Source of the DNA: Bacteroidota bacterium
GTDB lineage: Bacteria; Bacteroidota; Bacteroidia; JABEUT01
Length of the DNA: 64,000 bases
Assembly (NCBI GenBank): GCA_013289475.1
Contig: JABCZW010000003.1
Coordinates: 17,845-81,844 of the forward strand
Direction of reading: 5' to 3'
A program made the position numbers and the translations under genes. The notes under the pieces are model-generated. The model did no database searches and was not told the DNA's origin. It worked only from the letters and a program-made list of their open reading frames with translations. Positions 8,704 through 24,346 of this stretch are shown piece by piece (within the stretch, counting starts at the first letter, position 1; each line of letters opens with the position of its first letter).

Positions 8704-8718
8704 CATACGAACTGCCAG

Positions 8719-9606
8719 TTATTTACTTATTGCGTATTTCAAATATGTTTTACAGTACATAATTCTATTACTGCGTGAAGATGAAAATAAAACATTCAGA
8801 CTCTTAACTATGCTATAAAAAAAGGCATAGATACGATTATGGGTTTCGGCCACAAAATCCATTTCATTCTTTATTATACTATCTATTTTAAATATGCTTT
8901 CGCTCACTGATTGCCCCACTAAATGAATAACTTTGGTGCCGGCGTAATAATAAATAGTTTTTCCTATTTTCCAGAAATCATAGCACCACTTCATGTCCTC
9001 GCAATACATAAAATATTTTTCATTAAGTTTTTTACCGGGCAAACTTTTAATCACATCTCTTTTAAACATAAAGAAAGTACCCCAAACCCAATCGGGCATT
9101 ATATCCGTTTCATGGTTAAAATAAAACCCCAGCATAATCTTAGCTCTTTTTTGTCGGGAAAACAACTTATGTAATCTCGTTAATTCAAGTAAATTATTGG
9201 CAATGCCCGGAAAGCAGCTACACTGTCGTTGTACTAAACCATCCGGGTATATTAATTTGCAAGTAATTATTGCTGTCTCAGTACTTAAAAGTTTAAGCTT
9301 TTCATAACACATTAAAACTGAATTCTCTATTAATTCCGTATCACTATTTAGCAACAATATAGCATCTCCTTTCGATACCTCTATACCCATATTATTACCC
9401 TTAGCAAACCCCAAATTTTCGAGATTTTTAATCAAAGTAATACCCGGGAATTCCTTTTTAAATAAGTCAGCATCACATTCTGCGGAACGATTATCCACCA
9501 GAATAACTTCAAAATCTAACCCACTCGTATACCGGTAAACCGACCTGATACACCGGCTTGTTAAATAAAATGTATTATAATTAACTATTATTATAGATAC
9601 GTCCAT
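8719..9606 (-). CDS. glycosyltransferase family 2
   Basis: MDVSIIIVNYNTFYLTSRCIRSV...VDNRS...NSDTE is a classic GT2 N-terminus. Confidence 0.75.
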   Translation of the reverse strand: MDVSIIIVNYNTFYLTSRCIRSVYRYTSGLDFEVILVDNRSAECDADLFKKEFPGITLIKNLENLGFAKGNNMGIEVSKGDAILLLNSDTELIENSVLMCYEKLKLLSTETAIITCKLIYPDGLVQRQCSCFPGIANNLLELTRLHKLFSRQKRAKIMLGFYFNHETDIMPDWVWGTFFMFKRDVIKSLPGKKLNEKYFMYCEDMKWCYDFWKIGKTIYYYAGTKVIHLVGQSVSESIFKIDSIIKNEMDFVAETHNRIYAFFYSIVKSLNVLFSSSRSNRIMYCKTYLKYAISK

Positions 9607-9648
9607 AACACATTCAAAAGTCCTTAAAAGTAACTGAGAATATAATAC

Positions 9649-12600
9649 CTATTTCTGTAACACTATCTTTTTAATAACAGTGCCCTTATCGCTAGTTATC
9701 TTCAACGCATAAATACCATTAGGCAAGTAGTTCAGATTAATGCTTTCAGTATTATTTACAGCGCCGGCATTTATTTGCTTATTATACACCTTATTCCCAA
9801 GTTCATCAAAAATTGATATTACGGCCTGCTCCAATCGTGGTATCTGAATATTTACATACCCATTGCTAGGCACCGGGTAAACTTTTACCCCCTGAAGGGA
9901 ATTATTTAAATTTTGAATACCCACAACCACAATTGCGGTATCACAAGGTAAAGTTTCATCGCAATACCAACTTGTTACATTTACACAATATGTCCCTGTA
10001 TCAATACCGGTTGCCAGGGCCGTAGTTTGAACAGGAATTGTACTCCATGAATAATGATATTCAACAGTATCACCGGGAGGAACGCCACCCGAAACATATA
10101 CCTGTATCCAGCCATCATTGCAAGCGTTACACGATGCATCATGTACAACAAAACTGTCTATTTTCATTTTGCCGGCAGCACCAATATAAGGCACAGCAGA
10201 TGTATTACAGCCATTAAAGTCGGTAACTGTGCAAACATAACTGCCGGGACCCACGCCTGCTATTGAATCAGTTGTAGAGCCCGTACTCCAATTGTAAGTA
10301 TAGGGAGATGTACCACCTGAAGGATACACAATTGCAGCCCCCCCGCTTAATGAGCCAAAACAAACACCAATTGTCTGGGTAATTACATTCAGTTTTGCCG
10401 GCTGCATTATTGTAATTGCTGACTGTACTGTGCAGCCAGACGAATCGGTTACAGCACAGGTATAGGCACCGGCAGCAAGGTTTATAGCAAAGCTATTTGT
10501 TCCGGCACCTAAGGACCATTGGTATGTATACGGAGAAACTCCACCGGTTACATTTACAACAGCACTGCCTGTTTTCTGTCCGTAACAGGCAATTGAAGAA
10601 TTTGGTGTAATCACTACTTTGGGTCCGCCGGTATCGGCCACAACTATATTTACCGTATTTAAACAGTTTAAAGAATCAATCACTATACAAGTATATGTGC
10701 CCTCTGCCAGATTTGTAACAGAAGCCGATGTTTCGCCACCCGGAGACCATGAATAAGCATAAGGTGTTACGCCACCTGAAACAATAACTGTTGCGGCACC
10801 TGTATGTTTTCCGCATTTAGTAACTGTAGCTATTGTATCTATAACTATTGCTGCCGGGCTCGTAACTGATACCACAACCTGGCTTGCAGTGCATTTATTT
10901 ATATCGGTTATGGTGCATGTATATGTCCCAACAATAGCAGTATCCAGGAACATAGTTGTTCCGCCCGAAGGAGACCATGAATACGAGTAAGGTGTTGTGC
11001 CCCCGGTTACTCCTACTTTAGCATTACCATTATTACCACCATAACAACTAACATTATGCTGCATTGCAATACTGTCTCTTATCGGTAGAGGCTGAGTTAT
11101 GACTATGGCTACAATACCAGTACACCCTATACTATCGGTAGCGGTAAAAGTATAGGCACCTGCAATAAGCCCCGAGGCCATAAGACTACTTCCGCCAGAA
11201 GGAGACCAATTATAAGTATATGGCAACTTTCCACCAGAAACAAAAACAGTAGCAGTTCCGTTTGAACCACCATTACAACTTACGTTAGTAGAACTGCTCA
11301 AGCTGTCTTTAGGTCCACCTATATTGGGCACGGTCACCACCGGGCTCCTGGTACAACCAAGAGAATCAGTAACTATACACGTATATGAGCTTGCAGGTAA
11401 CGCAGTATCGAGTGCATTTGTATTACCATTAGACCAGGAATATATATAAGGCGATACGCCACCTGAAACACTGACACTTGCAGCACCAACATTCTTAGAA
11501 CAAGGTGTTGCAGTATACGATGTTATTGTATTAATTTTAGGGGGCTGAGTTATGGTTATGGTATCTGTAGTACTGCATTTATTAAAATCTTTTATTACAC
11601 AGGTATAAGTGCCAGCAATAATATTATTCGCAATGGCATTGGTTGCAATAGATGGCGACCATGTATATGAATAAGGAGTTGTGCCTCCAATAACACCAAC
11701 TATTGCCTTACCGCTATTAGACCCATTGCATTTTACATTCGTTGAACTTACAGTACTGTCTTTAAGCAGTGGCGGTTGAGTAATAGTAATTGTAACCGGA
11801 GTAATACAGCTATTTGAATCAGTAGCAGTAAAAGTATATGAGCCGGCAATTAAATTGCTTACCGAAGAACTTGTTCCCAGCCCTGCCGACCATGCGTAAA
11901 CATATGGCTTTGTACCGCCTTTAACTGCAATTGAAACATTACCGTTGTTACCACCATAGCATAGTATGTTAGTTTGTTTCTTAATACTATCTATTAATAG
12001 TGGTGGCTGCTTAATTGTAAAATTAAAGTTATAGGTTATACCCTTTAGGTCTATAACACTTGCTGAATAACTACCTGCCTTCAATCCTTTAATTGTATCG
12101 GTAGTTGCACCATTGCTCCATGAATATTTTAAAGGATAATGGCCACCTCTAACACGCATTATTGCCAAGCCTGCACTATCTCCAAAACATTTATTATCCT
12201 TTGTAATTAATGATGCCGTCATTACTTCTAAAAGATCTCCTCCCGGATTGACACCGCATGGGCCATTAACATCTAAATTAAAAAGCACCGTATCATGCTT
12301 CCCTGATGTATCGCAACGAAATATAACCCCGCTGTATGCAGCATTACTGCTGGTACCGCCTAAACTAGTCATCCCATATAACAAACCATCCGAAGCTTGT
12401 ATAAGGCTTCCTTTAGGGGAAGCTCCGTTATTTTGATTAAACACGAATAATACTGAATCTATAAGCGATACAGGATTGAAGCTGAACAAATTGCCGTAGG
12501 CACTGCTATTATTATAGACCATGCCATAGAGTAATCCGTTAGTTGCTTGCATTAAACTACCATAAGGGTTCCGGCCATGTATATCATCAAAATTATATAC

Positions 12601-13380
12601 TACCGTTTCAGTATTGCTTGTAGTATCAAACGTAAATATTACGCCATCATTACTTGCGCCACCCTGGTTAGCCATACCATAAAGCAATCCATTTGAAATT
12701 TGCACTAAACTACCATATGGATATGCTCCATTTGTACCATTAAAACTGCTTAGTAAAGTATATTGTGATGTGGTTATATTAAAAGAAAATATTACTCCGC
12801 CGTTGGATGCACCACCAAGATTGGTCATGCCATATAGCAATCCGTTTGATGCCTGTATAAGATTACCATAGGGGGTGGCTCCACTCGCACTATTGAAATC
12901 ATAAATATCTGTGTATTTTGACAACAGAGGATCAAAACTAAAGAGCACCCCGCCACCAAATTTGCCTCCGGCCGAAGTCATGCCATATAATATACCATTT
13001 GAAGCCTGTACTAAACTGCCATATGGTGTAGCTCCATGTGTCACATCAAAAGTAAACAATACGTTGCTTGTATTAGATGTTGGGTTATAATCAAACAACA
13101 CCCCCACATTACTCACACCTCCAGTCGATGTCATGCCATATAACAGGCCATTGGTTGCCTGCATCAGGTTGCCAAACGGGGTTTTACCCTGATTTCCCTG
13201 GAACCCTTCTTTAAAGTATATAGTATCCTTACCCGCTATGGTATCAATATCAAATATCGTTCCAAAATAAGTAGCCTGGTTAGATGTAAGCCCATACATC
13301 AGGCCATTAGTTTGTGACGAGCCTTTTTCAAATAGCCCAATAAGCAAAAATAAAAACAGAGTGATATTGATTCTTTTCAT
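9649..13380 (-). CDS. T9SS-secreted surface protein with N-terminal choice-of-anchor (GloVer-type) tandem repeats, SprB-type repeats and a C-terminal Por/T9SS sorting domain
   Basis: 1243 aa with a signal peptide. It has about 8 repeats of NGLLYGMT..GG..G.G.IFSF (Gloeo_Verruco type), then about 8 repeats of C.GG.NG...V.V.GGT.PY.Y.WS (SprB repeat), and a C-terminus VKVYPVPSNGYVNIQ...KIVLQK (type A sorting domain). Confidence 0.8.
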   Translation of the reverse strand: MKRINITLFLFLLIGLFEKGSSQTNGLMYGLTSNQATYFGTIFDIDTIAGKDTIYFKEGFQGNQGKTPFGNLMQATNGLLYGMTSTGGVSNVGVLFDYNPTSNTSNVLFTFDVTHGATPYGSLVQASNGILYGMTSAGGKFGGGVLFSFDPLLSKYTDIYDFNSASGATPYGNLIQASNGLLYGMTNLGGASNGGVIFSFNITTSQYTLLSSFNGTNGAYPYGSLVQISNGLLYGMANQGGASNDGVIFTFDTTSNTETVVYNFDDIHGRNPYGSLMQATNGLLYGMVYNNSSAYGNLFSFNPVSLIDSVLFVFNQNNGASPKGSLIQASDGLLYGMTSLGGTSSNAAYSGVIFRCDTSGKHDTVLFNLDVNGPCGVNPGGDLLEVMTASLITKDNKCFGDSAGLAIMRVRGGHYPLKYSWSNGATTDTIKGLKAGSYSASVIDLKGITYNFNFTIKQPPLLIDSIKKQTNILCYGGNNGNVSIAVKGGTKPYVYAWSAGLGTSSSVSNLIAGSYTFTATDSNSCITPVTITITQPPLLKDSTVSSTNVKCNGSNSGKAIVGVIGGTTPYSYTWSPSIATNAIANNIIAGTYTCVIKDFNKCSTTDTITITQPPKINTITSYTATPCSKNVGAASVSVSGGVSPYIYSWSNGNTNALDTALPASSYTCIVTDSLGCTRSPVVTVPNIGGPKDSLSSSTNVSCNGGSNGTATVFVSGGKLPYTYNWSPSGGSSLMASGLIAGAYTFTATDSIGCTGIVAIVITQPLPIRDSIAMQHNVSCYGGNNGNAKVGVTGGTTPYSYSWSPSGGTTMFLDTAIVGTYTCTITDINKCTASQVVVSVTSPAAIVIDTIATVTKCGKHTGAATVIVSGGVTPYAYSWSPGGETSASVTNLAEGTYTCIVIDSLNCLNTVNIVVADTGGPKVVITPNSSIACYGQKTGSAVVNVTGGVSPYTYQWSLGAGTNSFAINLAAGAYTCAVTDSSGCTVQSAITIMQPAKLNVITQTIGVCFGSLSGGAAIVYPSGGTSPYTYNWSTGSTTDSIAGVGPGSYVCTVTDFNGCNTSAVPYIGAAGKMKIDSFVVHDASCNACNDGWIQVYVSGGVPPGDTVEYHYSWSTIPVQTTALATGIDTGTYCVNVTSWYCDETLPCDTAIVVVGIQNLNNSLQGVKVYPVPSNGYVNIQIPRLEQAVISIFDELGNKVYNKQINAGAVNNTESINLNYLPNGIYALKITSDKGTVIKKIVLQK

Positions 13381-13455
13381 GTATGATATACGAAGGTCTT
13401 ACTATGCAAAGTTACTAAAAACCAGCCCATAAAAGAAATTTATTAATTTAACTTG

Positions 13456-13465
13456 CCCCCCCCCC
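13456..13465. repeat. homopolymeric C10 tract (G10 on the coding strand of the downstream gene) in the upstream region of the T9SS GloVer/SprB protein gene
   Basis: The sequence ...acttgCCCCCCCCCCttaac lies about 76 bp upstream of the ATG at 13380. A -7-like motif (TAACTTTG on the minus strand) is at 13407-13414. Confidence 0.9.
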
Positions 13466-13491
13466 TTAACACTTAGGATTAGAAGTACTTA

Positions 13492-14433
13492 TCAGTTTTT
13501 GCCTTGAGAATCGGCAAATCGTTTCTGTAAAACCTTTAATATATTTCTGCCGATTATATTTGGGGCTTTTAGCCTGTATAATAAAACAACAGCATTTATA
13601 TACTTACTTACCTTCTTATATTTCGTCAACAACTCAAGCGATTCTTTATCCCTATCTATATATGCAAGACGGGCAATATCCTCCATTCTTTTAATTACCA
13701 ATTGGCCATAGTCTATGTGCTTGGCATATATTTTTATTAATGAAGGGTACCATTTTTTCATGGTAAATGATAAACTGCTGGAACGCACCCTATATCTCAT
13801 CGAAACATAATCAGAAAATATAAATTTATATTCCCTCGCAAGCCTAAGCCACATATCGTAGTCTTCATAAGCCAGATTCTCATCAAATTGTCCAACTTTC
13901 TTATAAGCCTCCATTTTTATCAATACCGTGGGAGAAGGCATGAACAGATGCAGCAACAATAATGGCTCGTATATATTCCCGGTAGGAATATCTTCAAACC
14001 CCTTATAATAACGCTGTATAAACCAGCCATACATAGGGCTTCCGTCATCTTTCATAAGATAAGCATCCGAAAAAACCGCACAAACATCGCTTCCCGCTTT
14101 TTCAAGAATATTAACCTGCACACTGATTTTATCAGGCATCATTGCATCGTCGGTAGCTAAAAAAGCTACATACTTGCCATTTGCGTTATTTATTATTGCA
14201 TTGCATACAACGCAAACGCCCATGTTTTTTTCGTGCGCAATTAATTTAAATGGTTTATTATAGCTTTTCAGCCACTCCCTTATCATGCCCAGGCTCTCAT
14301 CTGTTGAGCAATCATCTATAATAACCAGTTCAATATTATCGTAAGTCTGCTCCTCAATACTTTTTAATGTATCAAGTACATACTTCGCATTATTATAATT
14401 GCCTACACCAATTGTAACCAGCGGTTGCGACAT
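13492..14433 (-). CDS. glycosyltransferase family 2
   Basis: GVGNYNNAKYVLDTLKSIEEQTYDNIELVIIDDCSTDES...ATDD is a GT2 signature. Confidence 0.75.
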   Translation of the reverse strand: MSQPLVTIGVGNYNNAKYVLDTLKSIEEQTYDNIELVIIDDCSTDESLGMIREWLKSYNKPFKLIAHEKNMGVCVVCNAIINNANGKYVAFLATDDAMMPDKISVQVNILEKAGSDVCAVFSDAYLMKDDGSPMYGWFIQRYYKGFEDIPTGNIYEPLLLLHLFMPSPTVLIKMEAYKKVGQFDENLAYEDYDMWLRLAREYKFIFSDYVSMRYRVRSSSLSFTMKKWYPSLIKIYAKHIDYGQLVIKRMEDIARLAYIDRDKESLELLTKYKKVSKYINAVVLLYRLKAPNIIGRNILKVLQKRFADSQGKN

Positions 14434-14441
14434 CCCACAAT

Positions 14442-15566
14442 CTATTTAAGGAAACCATTTATGCTATCAGCAATATACTTTACATTGCTGTTAATTAAAC
14501 CGGGATATATTGGTAAACTCAAACAAGTATCAGCTATTTCTTCTGCTATAGGAAAGTCGCCCAATTTAAACCCGAGGTTTTTGTAAGCCTTTTGTAAGTG
14601 AGGCGGAACCGGGTAATGTATCATGGTGCCAATACCACATTCTTCCAAATATTTCTTCAATTCATCCCTTCGTTTTGTTCTTACCACAAATTGATGGTAC
14701 GCATGATATGTTTCTGTTATAGTATAAGGTAATATAAGGCCCGGCGTATTTTTTAACAGAGACAAATAATGCTCTGCAATTACCTGTCGCTCCCTATTCC
14801 ATTTATCGAGATAGTTTAGTTTAACCATAAGAAAAGCTGCCTGTAATTCATCTAACCGACTATTAATACCCTTATATGTGTTATAATACTTTTCTTCGCT
14901 TCCGTAGTTCCTTAAAGCTCTTAATACTCTATTTAATTCTTCATTACTTGTTGTAATCATACCGCCATCACCCAATGCACCCAGGTTTTTACCCGGATAA
15001 AAACTGAAACCTGCTGCCTCAGCGAGTGATCCCGCCTTATTTCCTTTATATAATGCACCATGCGCCTGTGCAGCATCTTCAATAACAATTAAGCTATGTT
15101 TCAGGGCTATATTATTAACAGCCCCCATATCGACGCATTGACCATATAAGTGAACCGCAATGATGGCTTTAGTCCGCGATGATATTTTACTTTCTATATT
15201 TTTTGCATCAATATTGTAAGTTGCCATATCCGGTTCAACCAACACAGGCTTAAGCCCTACCCTGTCTATTGCTAGTACGGTGGCTATATATGTATTCGAT
15301 GGCACAATTACCTCATCACCATCCTTCAATGCACGCATTTCTTTATATGCCTCCAGGATAAGAATGAGCGCATCCAATCCGTTCGCAACTCCTATAGCAT
15401 GTTTAGCATCACAATAACCTGCAAATGCTTTTTCAAACTCCTCTAGCTGGCCACCAAGTATAAATTGTCCTTTATCAAGTACCTTCTTAAATGCACCTGT
15501 CAATTCATTCTCTAATACAGAATTGACACTTTGCAAATCAAGAAATGGTATTTTCATCTTATTCAT
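14442..15566 (-). CDS. DegT/DnrJ/EryC1/StrS-family PLP-dependent sugar aminotransferase
   Basis: 374 aa with ...[43 protein letters not shown], including the PLP lysine. It is canonical full length. Confidence 0.85.
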
Positions 15567-16514
15567 TTATTCCATTTCATCTATTACAGAAAGAAAAACC
15601 TTACTCATGTACTCTATATCTTTAGTTTCAATATCCTGGTGTATGGGAAAATTTAACATACTATTCGAAATATGATACGACAAAGGGAATGAGGCTCTAT
15701 CAATTTGCTCAATTAACCGATAATAAAGCGACATAACTGTTACACCCTTGTCTATCAATTTAAAATATACCTTTTCCCTGTTTTGGTTATGTATTAATAC
15801 TGGAAAATTAAGCGGCACAACTCCTTCGGGAACATTTGAATGCAAAATTGAATATTTTTTACCGGGCGACTTAAGCAAGCTCAGCATCATATTATAGTTC
15901 GCAATTCGCCTGGTTTTAATTGCATTATAATCAGCAGTATGGGCAATATACAAAGTCTCGTGCGAAATTTCCTCGCCATTACTTCCATCTTGGCCTTGTG
16001 TAACAGTACCAGTATAAGTATAAAACCCCCCGTCTTTTGTCGGCAGGTATTTATGGATTGAAAAAAAGGCATAATGCCCGACACTTCCAATCATCTTATG
16101 GCTCTCAACATACGCATTCATGGCATGTGCACAATCTTCAATCAATGCAATATTTTCAGCGTCACATAGCTGCTTTAGTTTTACTATATCTACCTGAAAA
16201 AAACTAAAATAATGAATCACCAGTATTGCCTTAATCTTTTTCTCTTTTACTTTCTTAACTATATCACTATAGTCCAGTTCCAGCTTCTCATTTATTTTAT
16301 AAAAATCATATTTAACGCCCGACGCTCTCACAGGGTCAAATACCCCAGAACCCTCTTTGTCTGTTATTCCAATATAGGCGGGAAGCAACAGAAATTCATT
16401 TTCCTTAAAATTTATTTGTTGTATAATCTGGCGAAAAGCTTCCCTGGCCGAAGGCTTATAACGGACAGGAAGAACGTTATGATTACTATTGGAAGCTTCT
16501 TTGGTTATTGCCAT
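15567..16514 (-). CDS. DegT/DnrJ/EryC1/StrS-family (PLP-dependent transferase fold) protein, divergent
   Basis: LIEDCAHAMNAYVESHKMIGSVGHYAFFSIHKYLPTKDGG resembles the DegT PLP-lysine region. The N-terminus is shorter than canonical. Confidence 0.5.
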   Translation of the reverse strand: MAITKEASNSNHNVLPVRYKPSAREAFRQIIQQINFKENEFLLLPAYIGITDKEGSGVFDPVRASGVKYDFYKINEKLELDYSDIVKKVKEKKIKAILVIHYFSFFQVDIVKLKQLCDAENIALIEDCAHAMNAYVESHKMIGSVGHYAFFSIHKYLPTKDGGFYTYTGTVTQGQDGSNGEEISHETLYIAHTADYNAIKTRRIANYNMMLSLLKSPGKKYSILHSNVPEGVVPLNFPVLIHNQNREKVYFKLIDKGVTVMSLYYRLIEQIDRASFPLSYHISNSMLNFPIHQDIETKDIEYMSKVFLSVIDEME

Positions 16515-16569
16515 TTACTAACCCGCTATTTGCGTATTAATTATAAAGCTCATTAAAAATTGAGCGATA

Positions 16570-17328
16570 TCAAATTTTAATCATTATTGCATGTCCGTTA
16601 AGATTGTGAATAAACACCCCATCTTTCAGGTTAAGCCCATTTACATACTTGGTAACTCCTTCACATCCCCAGGCAGAATAATCATCAAAAACTACCACAC
16701 CTTTCGATACCATCCTTGGCCATGCATATTCAAATACCCCTCGCGCCGATTCAAAAGTATCAACATCAATATGGCATATCTTTAATTTCTTTATATCCAG
16801 TTTGTTTTTAAAAGCATCCGGAAATATTCCCTTAAGTATTTTATATTTTGTCAGCCCAGCCTTTTGCATAAGCTTTTTTACAATTGTTTCACTGGTATCA
16901 GCATGCTCACCACCTTTATAAATGGTATCTTGTTTTCCCGCCTTAGCCACACCTTTAAATGTATCAGCCAGGTATAATGTTGATGAAGTTGCCTTTTTAT
17001 TGGCTTCACCCATTATAGCACCCGATCCTCCCTGCCAAACTCCAACTTCGAGTATATCACCCTGAAGCGCAACGGCCCTTTTAACCAAAGCCCATAATTC
17101 ATAACACCGGTAAATATCCACCAGCGTATTATTCCTGGCAATATCATATATCTTTTTAAACTCCTTATCTGTCTCCCATGGAGAATACGAAGCAGACGGC
17201 ACTACTTGTTTATGCACAATAGTGCTGTCTAATTGAGTGAAGCTGGTTTCTCTTAAGGCATTCAATATCCTTTTTCTCTCATTTCTCAGAAGCTCAAGAT
17301 ATTGGTCTTTATTTTTTTCGCTATTCAT
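16570..17328 (-). CDS. TylF/MycF-family SAM-dependent O-methyltransferase
   Basis: GDILEVGVWQGGS, LYLADTFKG and HIDVDTFESARGVFEYAWPRMVSKGVVVFDDY match macrocin-O-methyltransferase family motifs. Confidence 0.75.
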   Translation of the reverse strand: MNSEKNKDQYLELLRNERKRILNALRETSFTQLDSTIVHKQVVPSASYSPWETDKEFKKIYDIARNNTLVDIYRCYELWALVKRAVALQGDILEVGVWQGGSGAIMGEANKKATSSTLYLADTFKGVAKAGKQDTIYKGGEHADTSETIVKKLMQKAGLTKYKILKGIFPDAFKNKLDIKKLKICHIDVDTFESARGVFEYAWPRMVSKGVVVFDDYSAWGCEGVTKYVNGLNLKDGVFIHNLNGHAIMIKI

Positions 17329-17336
17329 GAAAACAG

Positions 17337-18296
17337 TTATTTTTTTTGCGTTAATACTTGAAAAATGTTCCGGTAAATATATTCAATGTCCTCATCCCTC
17401 AAATTCTGATGCGAAGGTATAAAAAAGCCGCCTCCGCCATAATATACCGTTGATTCTATTCCTTTATTGTTCAATTCAATTTTCAATCTGTCACTCAAAG
17501 GGGTTTGGGGCAATTGAAAAACAAAACAAGCAGGTACGTTGTTTTTATTCAATTTAAACCTGGGCCCGATTCCATGTTTGGCAAAAAGGTTCAAAAACTT
17601 GTTATAGTTCTCTTTTTTCTTTTTAACAAAGCCTTTATGTTTTTTAAAATAATAGTGCAACAGGGTTAACAGATAATTTTTTGAATACCGTGAAATAGCA
17701 GATGATGTACTAAGCTTGTTTCTTGACCGAACAAGCCCACCATACGATAAAGGGAACATTTTCGAAAAACTATATATAGCATAATCTCCAACCATTCCTA
17801 TATTCCCGGCTTCATTCTGCGATCCAAGGCAATATGCGCAATCTTCAATAATTGGTATACCTGAATTCAGCACACTTTCCGGTATACTGGCAGAGAAACC
17901 AAATTCGTGTATAATAAAAATGCATTTTGTTTTTTCGCAAATACTCCTGCCCCATTTGCATATCTTCTCAATCTCACTCGTTACCGAACTGCTTATATAT
18001 GGGCTGCCGGATGTGTTAAGAATACAAACCTCATCAAGCCTTTTGAGTTTAAGGTGCTGCAAAACCATCGAAATTCCTTCCTGTCCTCTTTTGGTAACAT
18101 AAGAAAACTTCTTAGCATCTTTAAAATACCGGTCAAGAGAACTGTCCTTATAATCGTCTTTTTTATTCTCGAGGTATATTTTATGGTTGATCGCCAGGTA
18201 TTCAGTATTAAAAGGACTTATTAAAAAATGAGGGAATACTCTTGGGTGAGAGTTAATAATATCATCAGGAAGTTCATGTAATTTACTTTTAGCCAT
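17337..18296 (-). CDS. DegT-like PLP-dependent transferase-fold protein, divergent
   Basis: IIEDCAYCLGSQNEAGNIGMVGDYAIYSFSKMFPLSYGG places a lysine around residue 179, the canonical DegT position. Confidence 0.45.
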   Translation of the reverse strand: MAKSKLHELPDDIINSHPRVFPHFLISPFNTEYLAINHKIYLENKKDDYKDSSLDRYFKDAKKFSYVTKRGQEGISMVLQHLKLKRLDEVCILNTSGSPYISSSVTSEIEKICKWGRSICEKTKCIFIIHEFGFSASIPESVLNSGIPIIEDCAYCLGSQNEAGNIGMVGDYAIYSFSKMFPLSYGGLVRSRNKLSTSSAISRYSKNYLLTLLHYYFKKHKGFVKKKKENYNKFLNLFAKHGIGPRFKLNKNNVPACFVFQLPQTPLSDRLKIELNNKGIESTVYYGGGGFFIPSHQNLRDEDIEYIYRNIFQVLTQKK

Positions 18297-18299
18297 TTG

Positions 18300-19061
18300 T
18301 TATTTTTTTTTACTGCTTTCCTTCATTAAGCATACATATACTTCGGCGCCCAGATCAGGCATATATTTTATCATCCTGCCTAATCCCTCTATAACATTCA
18401 TGTCAATTAGTTTTTCTTTCACCAGGCAATTCATTTGTTTATGGGTAAATGGCTTAATGAAGTATGAGCCAGAATCAACGACTGTAAATCCGGCAGACGA
18501 AACCATATCAATCATTGTTTGTTTGCTGAAAACATGAAACCGCTGAAACTTTATCTGTTCTTCCGAACGCTGGTTCAGGTCTTGTATCAAACCCGATTCT
18601 TTAGCTAATACCCTATGAAAAGAGAATTCATTCGGCGCGCTTATATACACATATGTTTTGTCACCCGCAATTCTATAAATGCTGTTAATAATCTCCATGG
18701 GGTCAGGAATTTCACCCAAAAGGCCTACACACATAATAAAATCAGGAACCTGTTCAAGTGCAACCACCTCTTGCGCGGTCTTTTGTACTATCTTAACTTT
18801 ATCCTTTAAATGATGGTATTCGTTGTTGAGCTTATCGGTAACAAAATCGCAAAAACCCTGCGCGGGTTCAATAATCGTAAGCATTTCAAAATCTTCAAAG
18901 TCAAGGAAAAGCGGGTTTATACCACAGCCTATTTCCACCAACCTCTTGGGCTTTAGCTTTTTTATTAATTCAATTTCAATATTTTTCTTTCTATAATCCG
19001 ACAGAATATGATCGAAATTATCTTCTACATATTCGCTATAATATTTATTCAGATCTCTCAT
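18300..19061 (-). CDS. class I SAM-dependent methyltransferase
   Basis: LVEIGCGINPLF is motif I (GxGxG-like), followed by a Rossmann-type pattern. Confidence 0.6.
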   Translation of the reverse strand: MRDLNKYYSEYVEDNFDHILSDYRKKNIEIELIKKLKPKRLVEIGCGINPLFLDFEDFEMLTIIEPAQGFCDFVTDKLNNEYHHLKDKVKIVQKTAQEVVALEQVPDFIMCVGLLGEIPDPMEIINSIYRIAGDKTYVYISAPNEFSFHRVLAKESGLIQDLNQRSEEQIKFQRFHVFSKQTMIDMVSSAGFTVVDSGSYFIKPFTHKQMNCLVKEKLIDMNVIEGLGRMIKYMPDLGAEVYVCLMKESSKKK

Positions 19062-19063
19062 TC

Positions 19064-20008
19064 TTATATTTCCTTTTCAAAAGTTAATTTAGGTGATACA
19101 TCGCAACCAATGCTTCGTTTAAATTCAACAAGGCCGTAATTGGGAATACTATTTTCAGTTGATGGCCCTATATCCACATATTCCATTCCCATTTTTTTAT
19201 AATAGTCGAATAAATTGTATGATAGAAAATTTACCGGCTTAAAGGATGAAAACTCTGCCAAATGCCCCCAATAAACCACTTGTACTATTTTATCGGTAAC
19301 CTTAAAAACCATTGCAGCTGCAGCATTTTTCCCTGCGTTATCGGTTACAATAAAAAAATCGGCATCAATTATACTATTTGTTTCCAGGATATTATCGAAA
19401 CTCATCTTTAATGGGAACCCACGCTGTTTGCGATTTTCAGAGATAATATCATATGCTTCCTTTATCTTTTCCGGTTCACTTACTTTATAAAAGCAAAGCC
19501 CGGCACGCATGCCGGCGTTATAATTTTTCCTGGCATTATAAGCAACATCCTGAAGGTAGTTTTCAGTGAAATTACCCAGGTTGAATTGAAAATTAAGATC
19601 GTTACTTACTATAGAGTATTTCTTCCGGTGAAAAACATTCCAAATAACCGATATTTCAGATTCATTATAAAACAAGGGAGGCATCGTAATTCTTATCCCT
19701 TTAACCTGCTTAGCTGATAAATAGTTTTCAAGTGCATCGTAAGCCAACTCAAGTTCTTCAATATCAACACCACCCTTATAACACCATCCCCCAAAAGGCG
19801 CAGAGAACGGGGATCTGAATTGATTATTACTCACACCCCCAATAATTCCGATATTACTTTTATTGTTATTTGAAAAAGCAAGAAACAATACCTCACTAAC
19901 CTTCGCTTTATTCAGCAGGTTAAATTCAGGCTTGTTAAATACATGATTGGGCTCCGGAAACCTTTTACCAAATTCAATACTATCTAATTCCTCAACTTTC
20001 ATTCCCAT
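19064..20008 (-). CDS. FemAB-like / BioF2-like acyltransferase-fold protein (GNAT superfamily), function unknown
   Basis: 314 aa with distant resemblance to Acetyltransf_6/FemAB proteins. The call is an inference from overall pattern and its position in a sugar-modification operon. Confidence 0.35.
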   Translation of the reverse strand: MGMKVEELDSIEFGKRFPEPNHVFNKPEFNLLNKAKVSEVLFLAFSNNNKSNIGIIGGVSNNQFRSPFSAPFGGWCYKGGVDIEELELAYDALENYLSAKQVKGIRITMPPLFYNESEISVIWNVFHRKKYSIVSNDLNFQFNLGNFTENYLQDVAYNARKNYNAGMRAGLCFYKVSEPEKIKEAYDIISENRKQRGFPLKMSFDNILETNSIIDADFFIVTDNAGKNAAAAMVFKVTDKIVQVVYWGHLAEFSSFKPVNFLSYNLFDYYKKMGMEYVDIGPSTENSIPNYGLVEFKRSIGCDVSPKLTFEKEI

Positions 20009-20027
20009 TACAGGTTTTGCAGTTTAT

Positions 20028-20423
20028 TTATTTAGCCTGTTTAAATTCATCATAATCCCGTATATAATCATCTTCATTATATTCAGAAGATGACAGGCAT
20101 AGTAAAACGGCTCCGTCAGTAAATTTAATAGTTCTCCAATACCCGCCCGGTATATAAAGTGCAATGGACGGGCTATCAAGAATAAATTCAAGTTTCCTGC
20201 CACCACGGTCTTCAAGTTCAAAAACTATTTTACCATTAAGTGCGCAAATTACCTGGCTTGAATTTTTATGGGCATGGTGCCCTCTTATAATATCGGCAGG
20301 GGTATTGTATGTCCAGTAAGCTCTTTTTATGTCAAACGGCACCTTTCCGCATTCCTCGGCAACAGTAAGATAGCCGATAGATGCATTACCAATTTTTCCT
20401 AAATCAATTATATAAGGCTCCAT
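20028..20423 (-). CDS. WxcM/FdtA-like sugar 3,4-ketoisomerase (cupin)
   Basis: 131 aa with ...RGHHAHKNSSQVICALNGKIVFELEDRGG...YIPGGYWR, the conserved His pair of FdtA-type TDP-4-keto-6-deoxyhexose 3,4-isomerases. Confidence 0.7.
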   Translation of the reverse strand: MEPYIIDLGKIGNASIGYLTVAEECGKVPFDIKRAYWTYNTPADIIRGHHAHKNSSQVICALNGKIVFELEDRGGRKLEFILDSPSIALYIPGGYWRTIKFTDGAVLLCLSSSEYNEDDYIRDYDEFKQAK

Positions 20424-20425
20424 TA

Positions 20426-21316
20426 TTAATTTAATTTAAAATCATGCCATTCATCAAATTTTTGCCCCGTAATTTCTCTCAACTTCGCTACCTCATCAAC
20501 TAACATTTGCTTTAGCCATTCTCTCTGGTCAGCAGTAATACCGGGTAACTCTTCGCGTTTTATAAAAAACTTCTCTACTACCTTATTTTTAGCCCGGCCA
20601 AAAAGTTTGTTTGGAAGGATAAAAGAAATACTTTTCATGAAACCGGGTGTTACATTAACTTTTTTTTCTGTTATACCGGCAAAAGTTTCTTTAATATCAT
20701 TTATATTGGACAAATTCAGAAAAGCAAAACATTCATTTAAGGTAGAAAGCGGTGCCGATTTCAATTGTTCAGTAGTAATAACATAAAGGTTCTCCCTGCC
20801 AAAAGCCTTTATATATTCCGCAACAGCACTTCCATAAAAACTTTCCTGCAAATAATTTTTGTAAGCACCGCCCTTTAATGGCTTGTTTGCATCAAACACC
20901 GCATTTCTGTCACTCATAATCTCGGCTTCAAAAGAGAGTGTTTCAAGTCCCATATTATTACGTATCCATGAAAAGTGAGAAAAAATCCGGTCAATGGGGT
21001 TACGCAATATAAATATAAATCTGGGGGCGGACAGGTCTTTTTTTATCCTTTCAACCGCAGCTTTAGAGATAAAGTAAGTAGTACTTGATTCGCCATAATA
21101 AACAATATCCTTTTTGGTATTGCATGTAAACAAAGCATTATGATAACCAATACCCTTGTTATATTCAGTATCTATTGCAAAATAATGAGGCTCTTTGTTT
21201 TCCGACATGCATATATTCGGGTGCTGGTTCAAATAAGCATGCAAGCTTGTAGTTCCCGATTTTCCTGCACCCGGAATAAGCAAATTGACTTTATATTCAG
21301 ATATATTCATTAGCAC
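20426..21316 (-). CDS. sulfotransferase-family protein (PAPS-dependent)
   Basis: The 5'-PSB-like motif IPGAGKSGTTSL and the 3'-PB-like motif ILRNPIDRIFSHF are both present. Overall length is 296 aa. Its 3' end overlaps the wzt start (ATGA). Confidence 0.75.
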   Translation of the reverse strand: MLMNISEYKVNLLIPGAGKSGTTSLHAYLNQHPNICMSENKEPHYFAIDTEYNKGIGYHNALFTCNTKKDIVYYGESSTTYFISKAAVERIKKDLSAPRFIFILRNPIDRIFSHFSWIRNNMGLETLSFEAEIMSDRNAVFDANKPLKGGAYKNYLQESFYGSAVAEYIKAFGRENLYVITTEQLKSAPLSTLNECFAFLNLSNINDIKETFAGITEKKVNVTPGFMKSISFILPNKLFGRAKNKVVEKFFIKREELPGITADQREWLKQMLVDEVAKLREITGQKFDEWHDFKLN

Positions 21317-22551
21317 CTGGCTGAACGGACTTCAAATTCACTGTACACTTTGTCTTGCCTCAAGTTAGGTATAACGCCTCTCCCGAAATAGTCAGCTTCT
21401 TCAATATTAAGCCTGAACGCATCTTGAAGAGAATCAATAATTACTCCGCCTATTTTACTCTCGTAAATATTAATATGACAACTGTATTCACCCGGAGCAA
21501 GCTGGCACCGGGGCCAAATCCATGTGATCGTAGAGTCACCGGATAATTCAATCTCCTGCCTGTAATAGGCTGATGCTAATCCAAAAATTCGGTTACCGTT
21601 TAAATCGTTAATAACCAATGTTGCAAATGCGTTTGCCTGCCGTGACGGGTCTGAAGCTTTTACAGCAACCTGTATTCTTGCCTCTTCTCCACTCTTATAA
21701 ACTGCAACAGGTTCATTATCCTTGTTCAACAGCATATACGATGCTATGTGGAATTGTCCGTTTCCATACCTGTCTTTGCGGCTTAATAGTTCATCGCCGT
21801 TTTTATTAATATTTGAAAGGTTAAAATAAAACTGCACAGCTTTATCAGACGTATCGGCAAATACTAACTTACCCGATTGTAAAACAACGGCATTTTTACA
21901 TAATTGCGCCATTATGCCCAGGTTATGGCTTACAAACAAAATAGTTCTTCCTTCCCTGCCCACTTCTTCCATCTTACCCATGCATTTTTTCTGAAACTCC
22001 ATATCTCCAACTGCCAATACCTCGTCAATAACCAATATTTCGGGCTCAAGGAAAGCAGCCACGGAAAAAGCAAGGCGCAGTTGCATGCCACTGCTAAAAT
22101 GTTTTAACGGTGTGTCGAGGAATTTTTCAACTCCGCTAAAATCAACAATGGCATCAAACTTCGACTCTATTTCCTTTTTCTTCATTCCCAAAATAGAGCC
22201 ATTCAAAAAAATATTTTCCCTACCTGTAAGCTCGGGATGAAAACCCGTACCGACCTCGAGTAAACTTGCAATTCTTCCTCTCGATATAATTCTTCCTGAT
22301 GAAGGAGGTGTAATTTTTGAAAGTATTTTAAGCAATGTAGACTTCCCCGCCCCATTTTTACCAATTATACCAACACTTTCGCCAAGATTTACATTAAAGC
22401 TTATATCATTAAGTGCATAAAACTCCTCTACCGAAGATGAGTTGCGCTTAAATACAGATGTTACAGAATCGCGCAAGCTTAAATAAGGTTGTTTTTCGTG
22501 ATTTATACGAAATGTTTTGGATACATTTTTTATTTCCAGTATGGGCTTCAT
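21310..22551 (-). CDS. wzt: ABC transporter ATP-binding protein, Wzt/KpsT type, with a C-terminal ~160-aa extension (putative glycan-terminus-binding module)
   Basis: Walker A GKNGAGKST, the signature FSSGMQLRL, Walker B ILVIDE and an H-loop are present. The 413-aa length, against about 250 aa for the ATPase core, indicates a Wzt_C-like extension. Confidence 0.85.
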   Translation of the reverse strand: MKPILEIKNVSKTFRINHEKQPYLSLRDSVTSVFKRNSSSVEEFYALNDISFNVNLGESVGIIGKNGAGKSTLLKILSKITPPSSGRIISRGRIASLLEVGTGFHPELTGRENIFLNGSILGMKKKEIESKFDAIVDFSGVEKFLDTPLKHFSSGMQLRLAFSVAAFLEPEILVIDEVLAVGDMEFQKKCMGKMEEVGREGRTILFVSHNLGIMAQLCKNAVVLQSGKLVFADTSDKAVQFYFNLSNINKNGDELLSRKDRYGNGQFHIASYMLLNKDNEPVAVYKSGEEARIQVAVKASDPSRQANAFATLVINDLNGNRIFGLASAYYRQEIELSGDSTITWIWPRCQLAPGEYSCHINIYESKIGGVIIDSLQDAFRLNIEEADYFGRGVIPNLRQDKVYSEFEVRSARC

Positions 22552-22553
22552 CG

Positions 22554-23366
22554 CTATGCCAGATCAGCAAAATAAACTTCTGTTTTTCTAAAATAAAATA
22601 AGCCCACTATAAAAAAGAATAAAGCAGAACCGAAGCTTATATATAACAAGTTAAACTGCAACGCCTGTTCATTGAACCCTGAACGGAATAATTCAATAGC
22701 GCTGTACATTGGATTTACTGCCAATGCATATTGTATCCACCCGTTTGAAATTTTTGAAACCGGGTATATAACGGGGGTCAGAAACAATAAAGCCTGTACC
22801 ATAAAGGGAATTACATACCTGAAATCGCGATACTTTACGTTTAAGGCAGCCAACAATGAGCCCACTCCAAAGGTTGAAATAGAAGTAATGAATATACTTA
22901 CGACTAACATTACAGGGAACCAAACCAATGAAACATGAACCTGGTAGTAAATAAGTATTACAATAAAAATAACAAAGGCCATAATAAAATCGAACAAGGC
23001 AACAAGTATTGACGATATAGGTATAATAAGGCGTGGAAAATATATCTTCTTAATTATATTGGCATTGGTTACCATACTATTACCTGCATTTGTTAACCCC
23101 GTGGAAAACACAGTCCATAAAATAAGGCCCGAAAGTGCAAAAACAGGGTAAGGCAATCCTTCCTGAGGGCCACCCTTGCCAAAAAAGACTGTGAAAATTG
23201 CCATGAGTAATAATGGCTGAAAAATAGCCCAGGCAAACCCGAAAAAAGTCTGTTTGTATTTAACCTTAATATCACGCAGGGTAAAGAAAAAGAATAGCTC
23301 GCGGTATTGCCAGAGTTCTTTTACTCCAAGGCTCAGTTTTTCATGCGGCTTTATTTCATATTCCAT
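22554..23366 (-). CDS. wzm: ABC-2 type polysaccharide export permease (Wzm)
   Basis: 270 aa with 6 TM segments, lying immediately upstream of wzt. A TATATTTG -7-like motif (minus strand) is at 23373-23380. Confidence 0.8.
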   Translation of the reverse strand: MEYEIKPHEKLSLGVKELWQYRELFFFFTLRDIKVKYKQTFFGFAWAIFQPLLLMAIFTVFFGKGGPQEGLPYPVFALSGLILWTVFSTGLTNAGNSMVTNANIIKKIYFPRLIIPISSILVALFDFIMAFVIFIVILIYYQVHVSLVWFPVMLVVSIFITSISTFGVGSLLAALNVKYRDFRYVIPFMVQALLFLTPVIYPVSKISNGWIQYALAVNPMYSAIELFRSGFNEQALQFNLLYISFGSALFFFIVGLFYFRKTEVYFADLA

Positions 23367-23472
23367 ATTTTACAAATATACAGATATCCTATGTAATCTC
23401 TTTATAAACAGGGCTAAAACATTAATTTAATACTACGCTGTTTTCGTGTATTCCTTATTTATTAAAATAGTA

Positions 23473-23480
23473 TACTTTTG
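23473..23480 (+). promoter_or_regulatory. Bacteroidota sigma-A -7-like element (TACTTTTG)
   Basis: Matches the TAnnTTTG consensus, about 25 bp upstream of the ATG at 23505. Confidence 0.35.
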
Positions 23481-23504
23481 TGTCAATCATTAAACCTCCT
23501 TTAC

Positions 23505-24041
23505 ATGTATAAAAAATATATTATAGCCGGGCTTGTATGCGGCCTGTTTTCATTTACTTCATGCAAACACGCTAACGATGACGCTGAACCTGAATTGGGT
23601 GCAGGAATGATACGGATGGACCTTACCCCCCTTGGTATACCTGCCACTATTGACATACCTGATACAACAAAAAAACCGCATGCTATTGAAGCGTTGCCTT
23701 CTGGCGATATACATGTATCTGTTGATAGAGGATTTAATATGCTTATTAATGTATCGGGTATGGATATGGACCGCAAGAAAAAGGACATAGCCGGTAATGA
23801 TGTAGATAAATTCCAGAGTTGGGTAGTACAGGATAGCAATGCTATTTTATACAAAACCCAAATGGTTAACGAAGAATTCCATTTTTATTCAATAATAAAG
23901 AAAGGCGGTAAAGCTTTTTATGCTTACGACCAAACCCAGGGCAGCGATGGTAATGTAACCAACTTTAGTCAGAAGCAAGCGCATGACATGCTTGATGCTG
24001 CAAAGACATTACATATGCTTAAACCGGCTGCAAAGAGCTAA
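23505..24041 (+). CDS. hypothetical lipoprotein
   Basis: MYKKYIIAGLVCGLFSFTSC carries a lipobox Cys. I recognise no other domain. Confidence 0.5.
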   Translation: MYKKYIIAGLVCGLFSFTSCKHANDDAEPELGAGMIRMDLTPLGIPATIDIPDTTKKPHAIEALPSGDIHVSVDRGFNMLINVSGMDMDRKKKDIAGNDVDKFQSWVVQDSNAILYKTQMVNEEFHFYSIIKKGGKAFYAYDQTQGSDGNVTNFSQKQAHDMLDAAKTLHMLKPAAKS

Positions 24042-24052
24042 AGAAGTAAAAT

Positions 24053-24346
24053 TTATTTCTTATCAATAACCTTAGGGGCTTTGATATAGTCAGAGTCCCT
24101 TTTAGGTGCATTTTTCAATGCTTCCTGCTGCGTAATTACTTGCTTCACTTCGTCGTCGCGCATTACGTTCGTGGTATCATTCAAGTACACCAGTGGCTCA
24201 ACAGATGTGGTATCGATCTCGTTTAGTTTTTCTACAAACCCTACGATACGGTTAAGGTCGTTTACAATCTCGTTGCGCGAAGCATCATCGAATTCAAGCT
24301 TGGCTAAATCAGCAAGTTTATCAACTGTTTTCGAATCAATTTTCAT
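24053..24346 (-). CDS. gatC: Asp-tRNA(Asn)/Glu-tRNA(Gln) amidotransferase subunit C
   Basis: 97 aa with MKIDSKTVDKLADLAKLEFDDASRNEIVNDLNRIVGFVEKLNEIDT, a typical GatC. Confidence 0.85.
   Translation of the reverse strand: MKIDSKTVDKLADLAKLEFDDASRNEIVNDLNRIVGFVEKLNEIDTTSVEPLVYLNDTTNVMRDDEVKQVITQQEALKNAPKRDSDYIKAPKVIDKK

Follow-up and report, generated by a model that had tools for sequence, protein, structure and literature searches.

Gene neighbourhoods place a predicted sulfotransferase of a Bacteroidota Wzm/Wzt glycan operon with amino-sugar genes

In the characterised O-antigen systems that depend on a transporter of the ATP-binding cassette (ABC) type, the carbohydrate-binding domain (CBD) of Wzt is always accompanied by a chain terminator (methyl, methyl-phosphate, or beta- or alpha-ketodeoxyoctonate, Kdo), and the protein that bears this terminator includes a coiled-coil ruler (PMC11231755). 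Sulfotransferase genes are also found near such exporters. Vibrio makes sulfated, ABC-exported capsules and has sulfotransferases beside a rhamnose operon (PMC11641403), while in Aeromonas salmonicida A450 an open reading frame (ORF) with a sulfotransferase domain directly follows wzt, with no sulfate found in the O-antigen (PMC4483657). Here we describe an operon that encodes Wzm, Wzt, a predicted sulfotransferase and enzymes for an amino sugar, at positions 13492-23366 of a 64,000-nucleotide stretch of DNA from a Bacteroidota bacterium (GCA_013289475.1, contig JABCZW010000003.1; hereafter the window).

An earlier note on this DNA had proposed the sulfotransferase and the methyltransferases of the operon as capping enzymes. 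Our favoured explanation, which we hold at a probability of roughly 0.5, is that the operon combines a CBD-bearing Wzm/Wzt exporter with a pathway for a sulfated, N-aminoacylated 3-amino-3,6-dideoxyhexose, and that the sulfotransferase belongs to the sugar cassette rather than being a stand-alone terminator. Because of the A. salmonicida and Vibrio cases, a sulfotransferase in the locus of an ABC-exported glycan is not itself evidence of capping. The same literature means that the earlier statement that sulfated bacterial glycans are rare is only partly true, as ABC-exported sulfated polysaccharides have been described (PMC11641403).

The operon and the neighbourhoods of its sulfotransferase

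In the ORF list of the window, 11 co-directional ORFs fill the interval. From wzm to the last gene they are as follows (aa, amino acids).

22554-23366, minus strand: Wzm, ABC-2 type permease, 270 aa (Pfam ABC2_membrane, E 2.8e-18, 66.7 bits)
21310-22551, minus strand: Wzt, 413 aa, with an ABC ATPase at residues 1-245 and a C-terminal Wzt_C domain (ABC_tran 81.3 bits, Wzt_C 54.7 bits)
20426-21316, minus strand: predicted sulfotransferase dependent on 3'-phosphoadenosine 5'-phosphosulfate (PAPS), heparan-sulfate-sulfotransferase-like Sulfotransfer_1 type, 296 aa (Sulfotransfer_1, E 2e-10)
20028-20423, minus strand: FdtA/QdtA-type dTDP-4-keto-6-deoxyglucose 3,4-ketoisomerase, 131 aa (Pfam FdtA, E 1e-38, 132.5 bits, full length)
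19064-20008, minus strand: FemX-fold double-GNAT transferase, 314 aa (assigned by fold; no Pfam match)
18300-19061, minus strand: methyltransferase dependent on S-adenosylmethionine (SAM), 253 aa (Methyltransf_23, E 4.3e-12)
17337-18296, minus strand: short DegT-fold pyridoxal phosphate (PLP) protein, 319 aa (partial DegT match, E 7e-10)
16570-17328, minus strand: TylF/MycF/NovP-like deoxysugar O-methyltransferase, 252 aa (Pfam TylF, 71.2 bits)
15567-16514, minus strand: short DegT-fold PLP protein, 315 aa, paralogue of the 17337-18296 product (DegT, E 4.9e-18)
14442-15566, minus strand: QdtB/FdtB-type dTDP-3-keto-6-deoxyhexose C3 aminotransferase, 374 aa (DegT, 376 bits)
13492-14433, minus strand: family 2 glycosyltransferase (GT2), 313 aa (Glycos_transf_2, 97.7 bits)

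The intergenic distances from wzm to the GT2 gene are 2, -7, 2, 19, 2, 3, 8, 55, 0 and 8 bp. Packing is tight, with just two gaps above 8 bp, and base composition is even along the operon (GC content 36-38%, uniform GC skew). Judged by layout and gene content, this is a real 11-gene operon and an ABC-transporter-dependent glycan locus. The earlier note was right about a tightly spaced, co-directional operon; its count of 12 genes (it had itself named 11) and its gap range of 0-8 bp gave way to 11 genes and a spacing that runs from a 7-bp overlap up to 55 bp. Nearly all of its family assignments were upheld by Pfam and NCBIfam profile searches: the FdtA-like ketoisomerase (132.5 bits over the full length), the SAM and TylF-type methyltransferases (Methyltransf_23 and TylF profiles), three DegT-fold proteins (one full-length, two short) and a Glycos_transf_2 protein. 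The FemAB-like call had no Pfam match and was confirmed as a FemX fold with Foldseek, which served for fold comparison; solved structures were compared through sequence matches to the PDB.

The gene at 20426-21316 encodes a genuine PAPS-type sulfotransferase by sequence criteria, with sulfate transfer itself predicted. At its start it shares 7 bp with the end of wzt. Among PDB entries, the protein matched 3rnl at E 5.5e-20, NDST1 in its N-sulfotransferase domain at E 3e-14 and heparan sulfate 3-O-sulfotransferases (3-OSTs) at E 1e-9 to 1e-12. Across 35 homologues, the 5'-phosphosulfate loop PGAGKSGTTSL (residues 15-25; consensus G-x-x-K-x-G-T-T/S), which aligns with the corresponding loop of 3rnl, NDST1 and the 3-OSTs, has invariant K19 and G21, and S20 and T22 are at least 90% conserved; K41 and E42 of the motif KEPHYF and R105 and S113 of the 3'-phosphate motif LRNPIDRIFSH are likewise invariant. 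From the alignment, we take E42 to be the catalytic Glu of a K-E-x-H-F motif and the counterpart of Glu90 of 3-OST-1 and Glu642 of NDST1. All PAPS-binding and catalytic residues are kept on alignment, which bears out the earlier claim of PAPS motifs.

We found 807 homologues of the sulfotransferase at E <= 1e-5 and inspected the neighbourhoods of 6 homologues by look-up together with 80 loci from a metagenome scan, whose ORFs were searched with the window's proteins (loci are numbered L002 and so on). Linkage was tested in the 25 loci that had at least 4 kb on each side of the sulfotransferase, counting FdtA within 6 kb. FdtA was present in 17 of the 18 loci whose sulfotransferase scored at least 108 bits against that of the window, and in none of the 7 that scored below 108 bits. 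The sole exception among the 18, L021, has a truncated sulfotransferase ORF of 151 aa. A neighbour-joining tree groups the FdtA/DegT-linked sulfotransferases in one clade, drawn from contigs with a GC content of 23-71%, within which the Wzt-linked genes make up a single sub-branch. Adjacency to Wzt is confined to this closest sub-branch, and Wzx-flippase loci are found elsewhere in the clade.

Three architectures were observed. The first consists of Wzm, Wzt with Wzt_C, sulfotransferase, FdtA, acyltransferase, in some cases methyltransferases, DegT and GT2 (the window, L002, L003, L004, L005 and L007). The second is found in marine low-GC Wzx loci with FdtA, sulfotransferase, Wzx and DegT (L006, L010, L012, L014, L025, L036 and others), where a FemX-like gene was confirmed in L006 only. 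In the third, on contigs of 37-59% GC, FdtA, DegT, sulfotransferase and Wzx follow one another with overlapping stop and start codons (L009, L013, L015 and L038). The sulfotransferase would, from these neighbourhoods, belong with 3-amino-3,6-dideoxyhexose genes regardless of export route. We read it as part of the amino-sugar cassette because its linkage to FdtA persists in loci of the Wzx/Wzy type, where terminal capping plays no part.

The relatives of the window also separate core from accessory genes. L007 shares the window's flanks (hflX-gatC and SprB) and keeps Wzm, Wzt_C, sulfotransferase, FdtA, acyltransferase, DegT and GT2, and it is without any methyltransferase and without the short DegT genes. 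L005 has the Methyltransf_23 gene and lacks the TylF/short-DegT cassette. The seven-gene core is kept in L004, L005 and L007, with the methyltransferases variable. Because methyltransferases are absent from L007, and the TylF-like one from L005, we regard them as accessory; the conserved core would be an exporter with a CBD, a sulfotransferase, an amino-sugar pathway and one GT2.

An acyltransferase or a ligase for the amine is encoded at every related locus examined, although not always the same one. The slot between FdtA and DegT holds the FemX-like gene in the window, L002, L003 and L087, and L006 and L088 have the homologue elsewhere in the locus. In L005 and L007 the slot holds weak Acetyltransf_6 matches, and L009 has a similar gene just upstream of FdtA. 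L013 encodes an LbH-FdtA fusion (LbH, left-handed beta-helix) preceded by a GNAT. In L004 the FemX-like slot (11688-12752) holds a protein with a weak N-terminal PylC-like (ATP-grasp) match, under the Pfam cut-off, and a Hexapep protein is encoded a few genes downstream. In L013 and L004 a sulfate on the amino sugar would be O-linked, because canonical N-acetyltransferases (the LbH-FdtA fusion and the Hexapep protein) would occupy the amine.

L004 (GCA_038237845) also carries a second sulfotransferase gene (Sulfotransfer_2) at 9181-10008, between Wzt and the orthologous sulfotransferase. This suggests that its glycan may be a doubly sulfated, differently acylated variant.

Exporter, amino-sugar enzymes and a proposed pathway

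Wzm gave weak matches to the galactan Wzm/RfbD and KpsM models of NCBIfam, far under their cut-offs. The extension of Wzt beyond its ATPase core, which the earlier note had pointed out, is a Wzt_C carbohydrate-binding domain by Pfam (residues 259-386, nucleotides 21394-21777; E 1.4e-14, 54.7 bits, above the gathering score of 30.4). Over residues 27-363 the best PDB match of Wzt is full-length Wzt of Aquifex aeolicus (8dku/7k2t, E 1.6e-67). The CBD alone gave marginal matches to the solved A. aeolicus CBDs (8dku/8dky/6o14, E 0.02-0.04), and a single-sequence AlphaFold2 model of residues 245-413 was discarded for low confidence (predicted local distance difference test, pLDDT, 39). The CBD assignment rests on the Pfam profile because the CBD-only match was marginal and the model failed; of the two checks proposed earlier for this region, the profile search succeeded and the structure prediction did not.

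Among the window, L002, L003, L005 and L007, identity is 59-79% in the Wzt ATPase domain and 29-55% in the CBD. Faster divergence of the CBD would be a serotype-like pattern, as in the characterised systems. We considered this divergence as a guide to the ligand and dropped it, because L003 has the window's gene set over the contig available, yet its CBD is 36% identical; there is thus no simple correspondence between CBD divergence and the genes present. A 3.9-kb JGI contig (sample 3300050821) carries an identical sulfotransferase, and there wzt was called as a 215-aa ABC_tran ORF and a 175-aa Wzt_C ORF within the same 1242 nucleotides, which suggests a nonsense variant or an assembly error. 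Wzt of L004 (7868-9161) is likewise split into separate ATPase and Wzt_C ORFs.

The ketoisomerase carries the motif RGHHAHK, which would match the catalytic His pair of FdtA. The 374-aa DegT protein has QdtB (3frk, E 8.5e-132, residues 4-372) at the top of its PDB ranking, followed by 7n63, 5u1z and 2oga; gluco and galacto products of a QdtB-like enzyme are not distinguishable by sequence. No Hexapep protein was detected in the operon by Pfam, so that a left-handed beta-helix N-acetyltransferase of the FdtC/QdtC kind is missing from it, and the FemX-fold protein fills that slot.

This 314-aa protein gave a confident model when built with 39 homologues (pLDDT 95.8). In a Foldseek search, Sba18/Sbb17, peptide synthases that use aminoacyl-tRNA, ranked first in complex with the amino sugar streptothrisamine (E 1e-15), ahead of FemX, FemA and synthases of aminoacyl-phosphatidylglycerol. 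Near the C-terminus, the alignment of homologues shows an invariant F296-K297 within a G-x-x-E-F-K-x-S-I-G motif, a candidate counterpart of the catalytic Lys305 of FemX. The family is frequent in Flavobacterium (43-48% identity), and in F. psychrotolerans (L087) its gene lies between FdtA and DegT, beside Wzm/Wzt. Orf11, which is related to Sba18/Sbb17, aminoacylates streptothrisamine using Gly-tRNA (PMC12945691), and glycans of Pseudoalteromonas and Aeromonas are known to contain 3-amino-3,6-dideoxyglucose (Qui3N) that bears N-acetyl-alanyl (PMC3210612). Because of the Foldseek matches, the chemistry of Orf11 and the FdtA-DegT placement in L087, we read the modelled protein as probably the N-acylating enzyme of the 3-amino sugar, transferring an amino acid from aminoacyl-tRNA. 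The 313-aa GT2, whose homologue directly follows DegT in L002, L004, L005 and L007 (E 1e-95 in L007), is probably the transferase for the decorated dideoxyhexose.

Precursor is probably supplied by two genes about 11-15 kb away, which from their families would provide dTDP-4-keto-6-deoxyglucose.

34256-35320, plus strand: NDP-sugar 4,6-dehydratase, RmlB-like, 354 aa (GDP_Man_Dehyd 321 bits, Epimerase 215 bits; family level only)
37903-38769, plus strand: sugar-1-phosphate nucleotidylyltransferase, RmlA-like, 288 aa (NTP_transferase 253 bits; family level only)

In the pathway that we propose, the RmlA/RmlB-like enzymes would make dTDP-4-keto-6-deoxyglucose, which the FdtA/QdtA enzyme would isomerise and the QdtB-like enzyme would aminate at C3. 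The FemX-like enzyme would then aminoacylate the amine, and the GT2 would place the sugar on the lipid-linked glycan. The sulfotransferase would place an O-sulfate on the dideoxyhexose or on the residue next to it; we favour O- over N-sulfation since acylation of the amine is encoded at all related loci as well. Lineage-specific decoration would come from the two methyltransferases and the short PLP-fold proteins, five other glycosyltransferases would build the remainder of the glycan, and the CBD would recognise a terminal epitope for export by Wzm/Wzt. The observations on which the scheme draws are the genes present, their domain families, the conserved motifs, the fold and the statistics of gene neighbourhoods; from these we infer in which order the steps occur, where and on which acceptor the sulfate is placed, which amino acid is attached and whether the residue lies at the end of the chain or within it.

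Several points weigh against this explanation. Many FdtA-positive loci are orthologous, of the marine Flavobacteriia type, and a fair count of the 17 of 18 is about three independent architectures rather than 17 events. Placing the sulfate on the dideoxyhexose rests on co-location of genes, which does not show it, and no PAPS-synthesis genes were detected among the window ORFs scanned by profile. The acyl donor of the FemX-like protein could be an acyl-CoA instead of an aminoacyl-tRNA. The idea of a terminal residue also has to contend with the Wzx loci, in which the same cassette would necessarily act in-chain.

Accessory and flanking genes

The best PDB match of the Methyltransf_23 protein was only 2p7h (E 4e-4), and it has no informative relative of solved structure; the gene is present in L002, L003 and L005 and absent from L007. 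We ruled it out as a WbdD-like cap enzyme, since it has no PDB similarity to WbdD. The TylF-like protein matched the 3''-O-methyltransferase MycF (E 3e-10) and NovP (E 9e-8).

Both short DegT-fold proteins keep the PLP Lys (SFSK) and Asp (IEDCA) motifs and belong to a family of ~310-aa Bacteroidota proteins with 360 matches. In Rhodonellum psychrophilum (L088, 7204-9890) a FemX-like homologue (E 6e-68) is directly followed by orthologues of both (E 8e-81 for the 15567-16514 product and E 7e-56 for that of 17337-18296), and L089 (6304-8936) has an orthologue of the former (E 3e-74). The FemX-like gene and the two short PLP-fold paralogues thus look like a conserved three-gene cassette. In Saccharicrinis, one short DegT-fold gene comes after a WbqC-family gene and a Sulfotransfer_1 gene.

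Beyond the GT2 gene, and farther away on the wzm side, the window contains the following.

9649-13380, minus strand: SprB-repeat protein of 1243 aa, with a C-terminal domain for type IX secretion sorting (SprB repeats 239 bits, Por_Secre_tail 47 bits)
4345-9606, both strands: five more glycosyltransferase genes (GT4-like 400 aa, GT2 318 aa, GT4 375 aa, GT2 332 aa, GT2 295 aa; Pfam Glycos_transf_1, Glycos_transf_2, Glyco_transf_4)
31350-34252, plus strand: three consecutive genes, for a Hexapep acetyltransferase of 195 aa (31350-31937), a GFO/IDH/MocA oxidoreductase of 340 aa and a UDP-sugar dehydrogenase of 429 aa

The five glycosyltransferases are candidate backbone-building enzymes. The SprB-repeat gene also follows the GT2 gene in L002 and L007, and it does not in L005. 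The trio at 31350-34252 resembles the Wbp pathway for 2,3-diacetamido uronic acids, which in Porphyromonas gingivalis supplies the 'linking sugar' of type IX secretion system (T9SS) cargo (PMC7468200). Two further T9SS cargo genes lie at 48794-50239 (minus strand; 481 aa, a weak arylsulfotransferase (ASST) beta-propeller match and Por_Secre_tail) and 50251-58815 (minus strand; 2854 aa, Ig_7 repeats, a Rax2-like propeller and Por_Secre_tail). Adjoining the glycosyltransferase block at 134-4360 (plus strand) are HlyD-family membrane-fusion and AcrB-family resistance-nodulation-division (RND) efflux genes, which are probably unrelated to the glycan locus.

The wzm-side flank consists of a divergent 187-aa ORF, gatC and hflX. 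The divergent ORF (23478-24041, plus strand) has no Pfam match and a lipoprotein-like N-terminus (LVCGLFSFTSC); L002, L003 and L007 have an ORF of 180-184 aa, also without a Pfam match, in the same position and orientation. A promoter scan of 9400-24100 gave fewer promoter-like sites than in shuffles and is uninformative, as the tool does not cover Bacteroidota promoters, and a scan of this region found no convincing terminator between the GT2 and SprB genes. A TAnnTTTG motif, as in the Bacteroidota -7 promoter element, occurs as TATATTTG at 23373-23380 (minus strand), 6 nucleotides upstream of the wzm ATG; in such AT-rich DNA a chance match is easily possible.

Alternative readings and comparison with described systems

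The earlier idea that export is gated by a terminal epitope is plausible and a fair inference from Wzt_C and the characterised systems (PMC11231755). The CBD of Wzt makes it probable, by analogy, that an epitope at the non-reducing end gates export. What that epitope is can be argued in several ways. The most plausible candidate is the decorated residue, added once by the GT2 onto the backbone, because the enzymes that build and decorate it are inherited with this GT2 and the exporter as one module. In its full form, this idea holds that the GT2 adds a sulfated, N-aminoacylated 3-amino-3,6-dideoxyhexose a single time and that the Wzt CBD reads this residue as the export tag at the non-reducing end; it is a tentative extension of our explanation that we consider unlikely as it stands. 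If it were true, glycan pathways that depend on an ABC transporter would have their first chain terminator containing sulfate, and their first containing an amino acid, and this terminator would need no coiled-coil ruler protein.

A sulfate, alone or with a methyl group, might instead sit on the non-reducing end as the dedicated terminator, chain-length setter and CBD ligand, as the earlier note had proposed. Such a role would fit the presence of Wzt_C, the overlap of the sulfotransferase start with the wzt stop, an adjacency kept in all 6 of 6 Wzt-linked loci, and the nature of the known terminators, either Kdo or a small group, anionic or methyl (PMC11231755); moreover, L007 keeps the sulfotransferase without a methyltransferase, leaving sulfate as its sole conserved small-group candidate. 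However, the link of the sulfotransferase clade to FdtA/QdtB extends over loci that depend on Wzx and lack Wzt, and in the Wzt-linked loci the gene adjoins FdtA just as closely. The wzt-adjacent sulfotransferase-domain gene of A. salmonicida has no matching sulfate in the reported O-antigen (PMC4483657). Among the operon products (131-413 aa) there is also no multidomain coiled-coil terminator of the WbdD, WbbB or ORF6-O7 type, as judged by size and domains, with no dedicated coiled-coil predictor run: one catalytic domain covers seven products almost end to end and two domains cover Wzt, the two short DegT-fold proteins have partial Pfam matches and the FemX-like protein is assigned by its fold. 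The nearby five glycosyltransferases are small too (295-400 aa). Literature searches on a sulfate terminator, or on sulfated Qui3N or its galacto counterpart Fuc3N, returned nothing relevant, and a full-text search found no paper naming both a sulfotransferase and FdtA. We regard this model as doubtful.

A methyl cap as in E. coli O8, with one methyltransferase capping the terminal sugar, the CBD reading the methyl and the sulfate lying in-chain, is doubtful to a similar degree. Methyl is a proven terminator (PMC11231755), and the TylF-like enzyme resembles the sugar O-methyltransferases MycF and NovP. Yet L007 has Wzt_C and neither methyltransferase, L005 lacks the TylF-like gene, the Methyltransf_23 protein has no match to WbdD, and both enzymes are small, single-domain proteins with no ruler. 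Taken together, the FdtA linkage in 17 of 18 loci, the methyltransferases missing from L007 and L005 and the absence of a WbdD/WbbB-like terminator speak against the earlier assignment of the sulfotransferase and methyltransferases as capping enzymes, and a sulfate or methyl chain terminator is not supported by the comparative evidence.

The sulfotransferase might also act on nitrogen, with a sulfamate formed either at the 3-amino group or at the aminoacyl substituent's free alpha-amine. Among solved structures, the protein matches NDST1 in its N-sulfotransferase domain (E 3e-14) better than the 3-O-sulfotransferases, DegT and the sulfotransferase are apparently translationally coupled in several loci, and the product of a FemX-type enzyme would have an exposed free amine. 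Sequence does not, however, separate N- from O-sulfation here, because the NDST and 3-OST families are too close. A version in which N-sulfation makes up for a missing acyltransferase was rejected as the main model, since an acyltransferase or ligase for the amine is encoded at each of the related loci examined. N-sulfation is in our judgement improbable.

Least probable is that the glycan anchors T9SS cargo and its aminoacylated terminal sugar is a counterpart of the P. gingivalis 'linking sugar', which lies at the distal end of the O-polysaccharide with Ser/Gly installed by VimA (PMC7468200, PMC13086638): that precedent, the predicted aminoacyl-transferase-fold enzyme acting on an amino sugar, the T9SS cargo gene after the operon in the window, L002 and L007 and the Wbp-like genes at 31350-34252 would fit, but SprB adjacency is limited to close syntenic relatives and does not extend to L005, and no sulfated, methylated residue is known to serve a sortase as acceptor. 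Searching the literature for VimA together with FemX gave nothing.

Should the amino-sugar pathway that we favour hold, a widespread uncharacterised sulfotransferase clade, whose linkage to FdtA/QdtB is seen on contigs of 23-59% GC, would gain a substrate class, Qui3N/Fuc3N-type residues. A common Bacteroidota family without a Pfam model would become an enzyme that attaches amino acids to 3-amino sugars, and it would explain the N-acetyl-alanyl-Qui3N type of residue long known from glycan chemistry. The operon would also offer a tractable non-enterobacterial system for Wzt CBD recognition without a terminator of the WbdD/WbbB type. Sulfated surface glycans are also relevant to phage and host interactions and to biotechnology.

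The described systems each share a part of this locus. The CBD-gated systems (E. coli O8/O9a, equal to K. pneumoniae O5/O3, and K. pneumoniae O12, O4 and O7) have, like the window, Wzm/Wzt with a Wzt_C-type CBD that diverges fast, and a glycan completed in the cytoplasm, presumably so in the window. In contrast to these enterobacterial systems, the window is from a Bacteroidota host, is without a coiled-coil terminator, kinase or Kdo transferase, and has free-standing, single-domain small-group enzymes. With the pathways for dTDP-Fuc3NAc (FdtA-FdtB-FdtC, Aneurinibacillus thermoaerophilus) and dTDP-Qui3NAc (QdtA-QdtB-QdtC, Thermoanaerobacterium thermosaccharolyticum) the window shares the ketoisomerase and the C3 aminotransferase, whereas it has the FemX-fold transferase in place of FdtC/QdtC and adds the sulfotransferase, two methyltransferases and two short PLP-fold proteins. 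Orf11, Sba18 and Sbb17 of streptothricin-type antibiotic pathways have the same FemABX fold and act on an amino sugar, as is predicted for the window protein; this protein is 10-15% identical to them, it belongs to a nucleotide-sugar pathway that serves a surface glycan rather than an antibiotic, and its use of tRNA is predicted.

The A. salmonicida A450 cluster, likened by gene position and domain, has a sulfotransferase-domain gene right downstream of a long Wzt (PMC4483657). It differs in that this ORF is shorter, at 216 aa, wbbB comes next, and the terminator is presumably the Kdo-transferase domain of WbbB. Finally, the sulfated capsules of marine Vibrio and Cobetia resemble the window in having sulfotransferase genes in a polysaccharide locus, by a deoxysugar operon, and in ABC-transporter export (PMC11641403, PMC11766843). 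Unlike the window, these clusters have their own PAPS-synthesis genes (cysDNC) and carry the sulfate on rhamnose or the backbone, and no Wzt CBD or Qui3N/Fuc3N pathway has been described for them.

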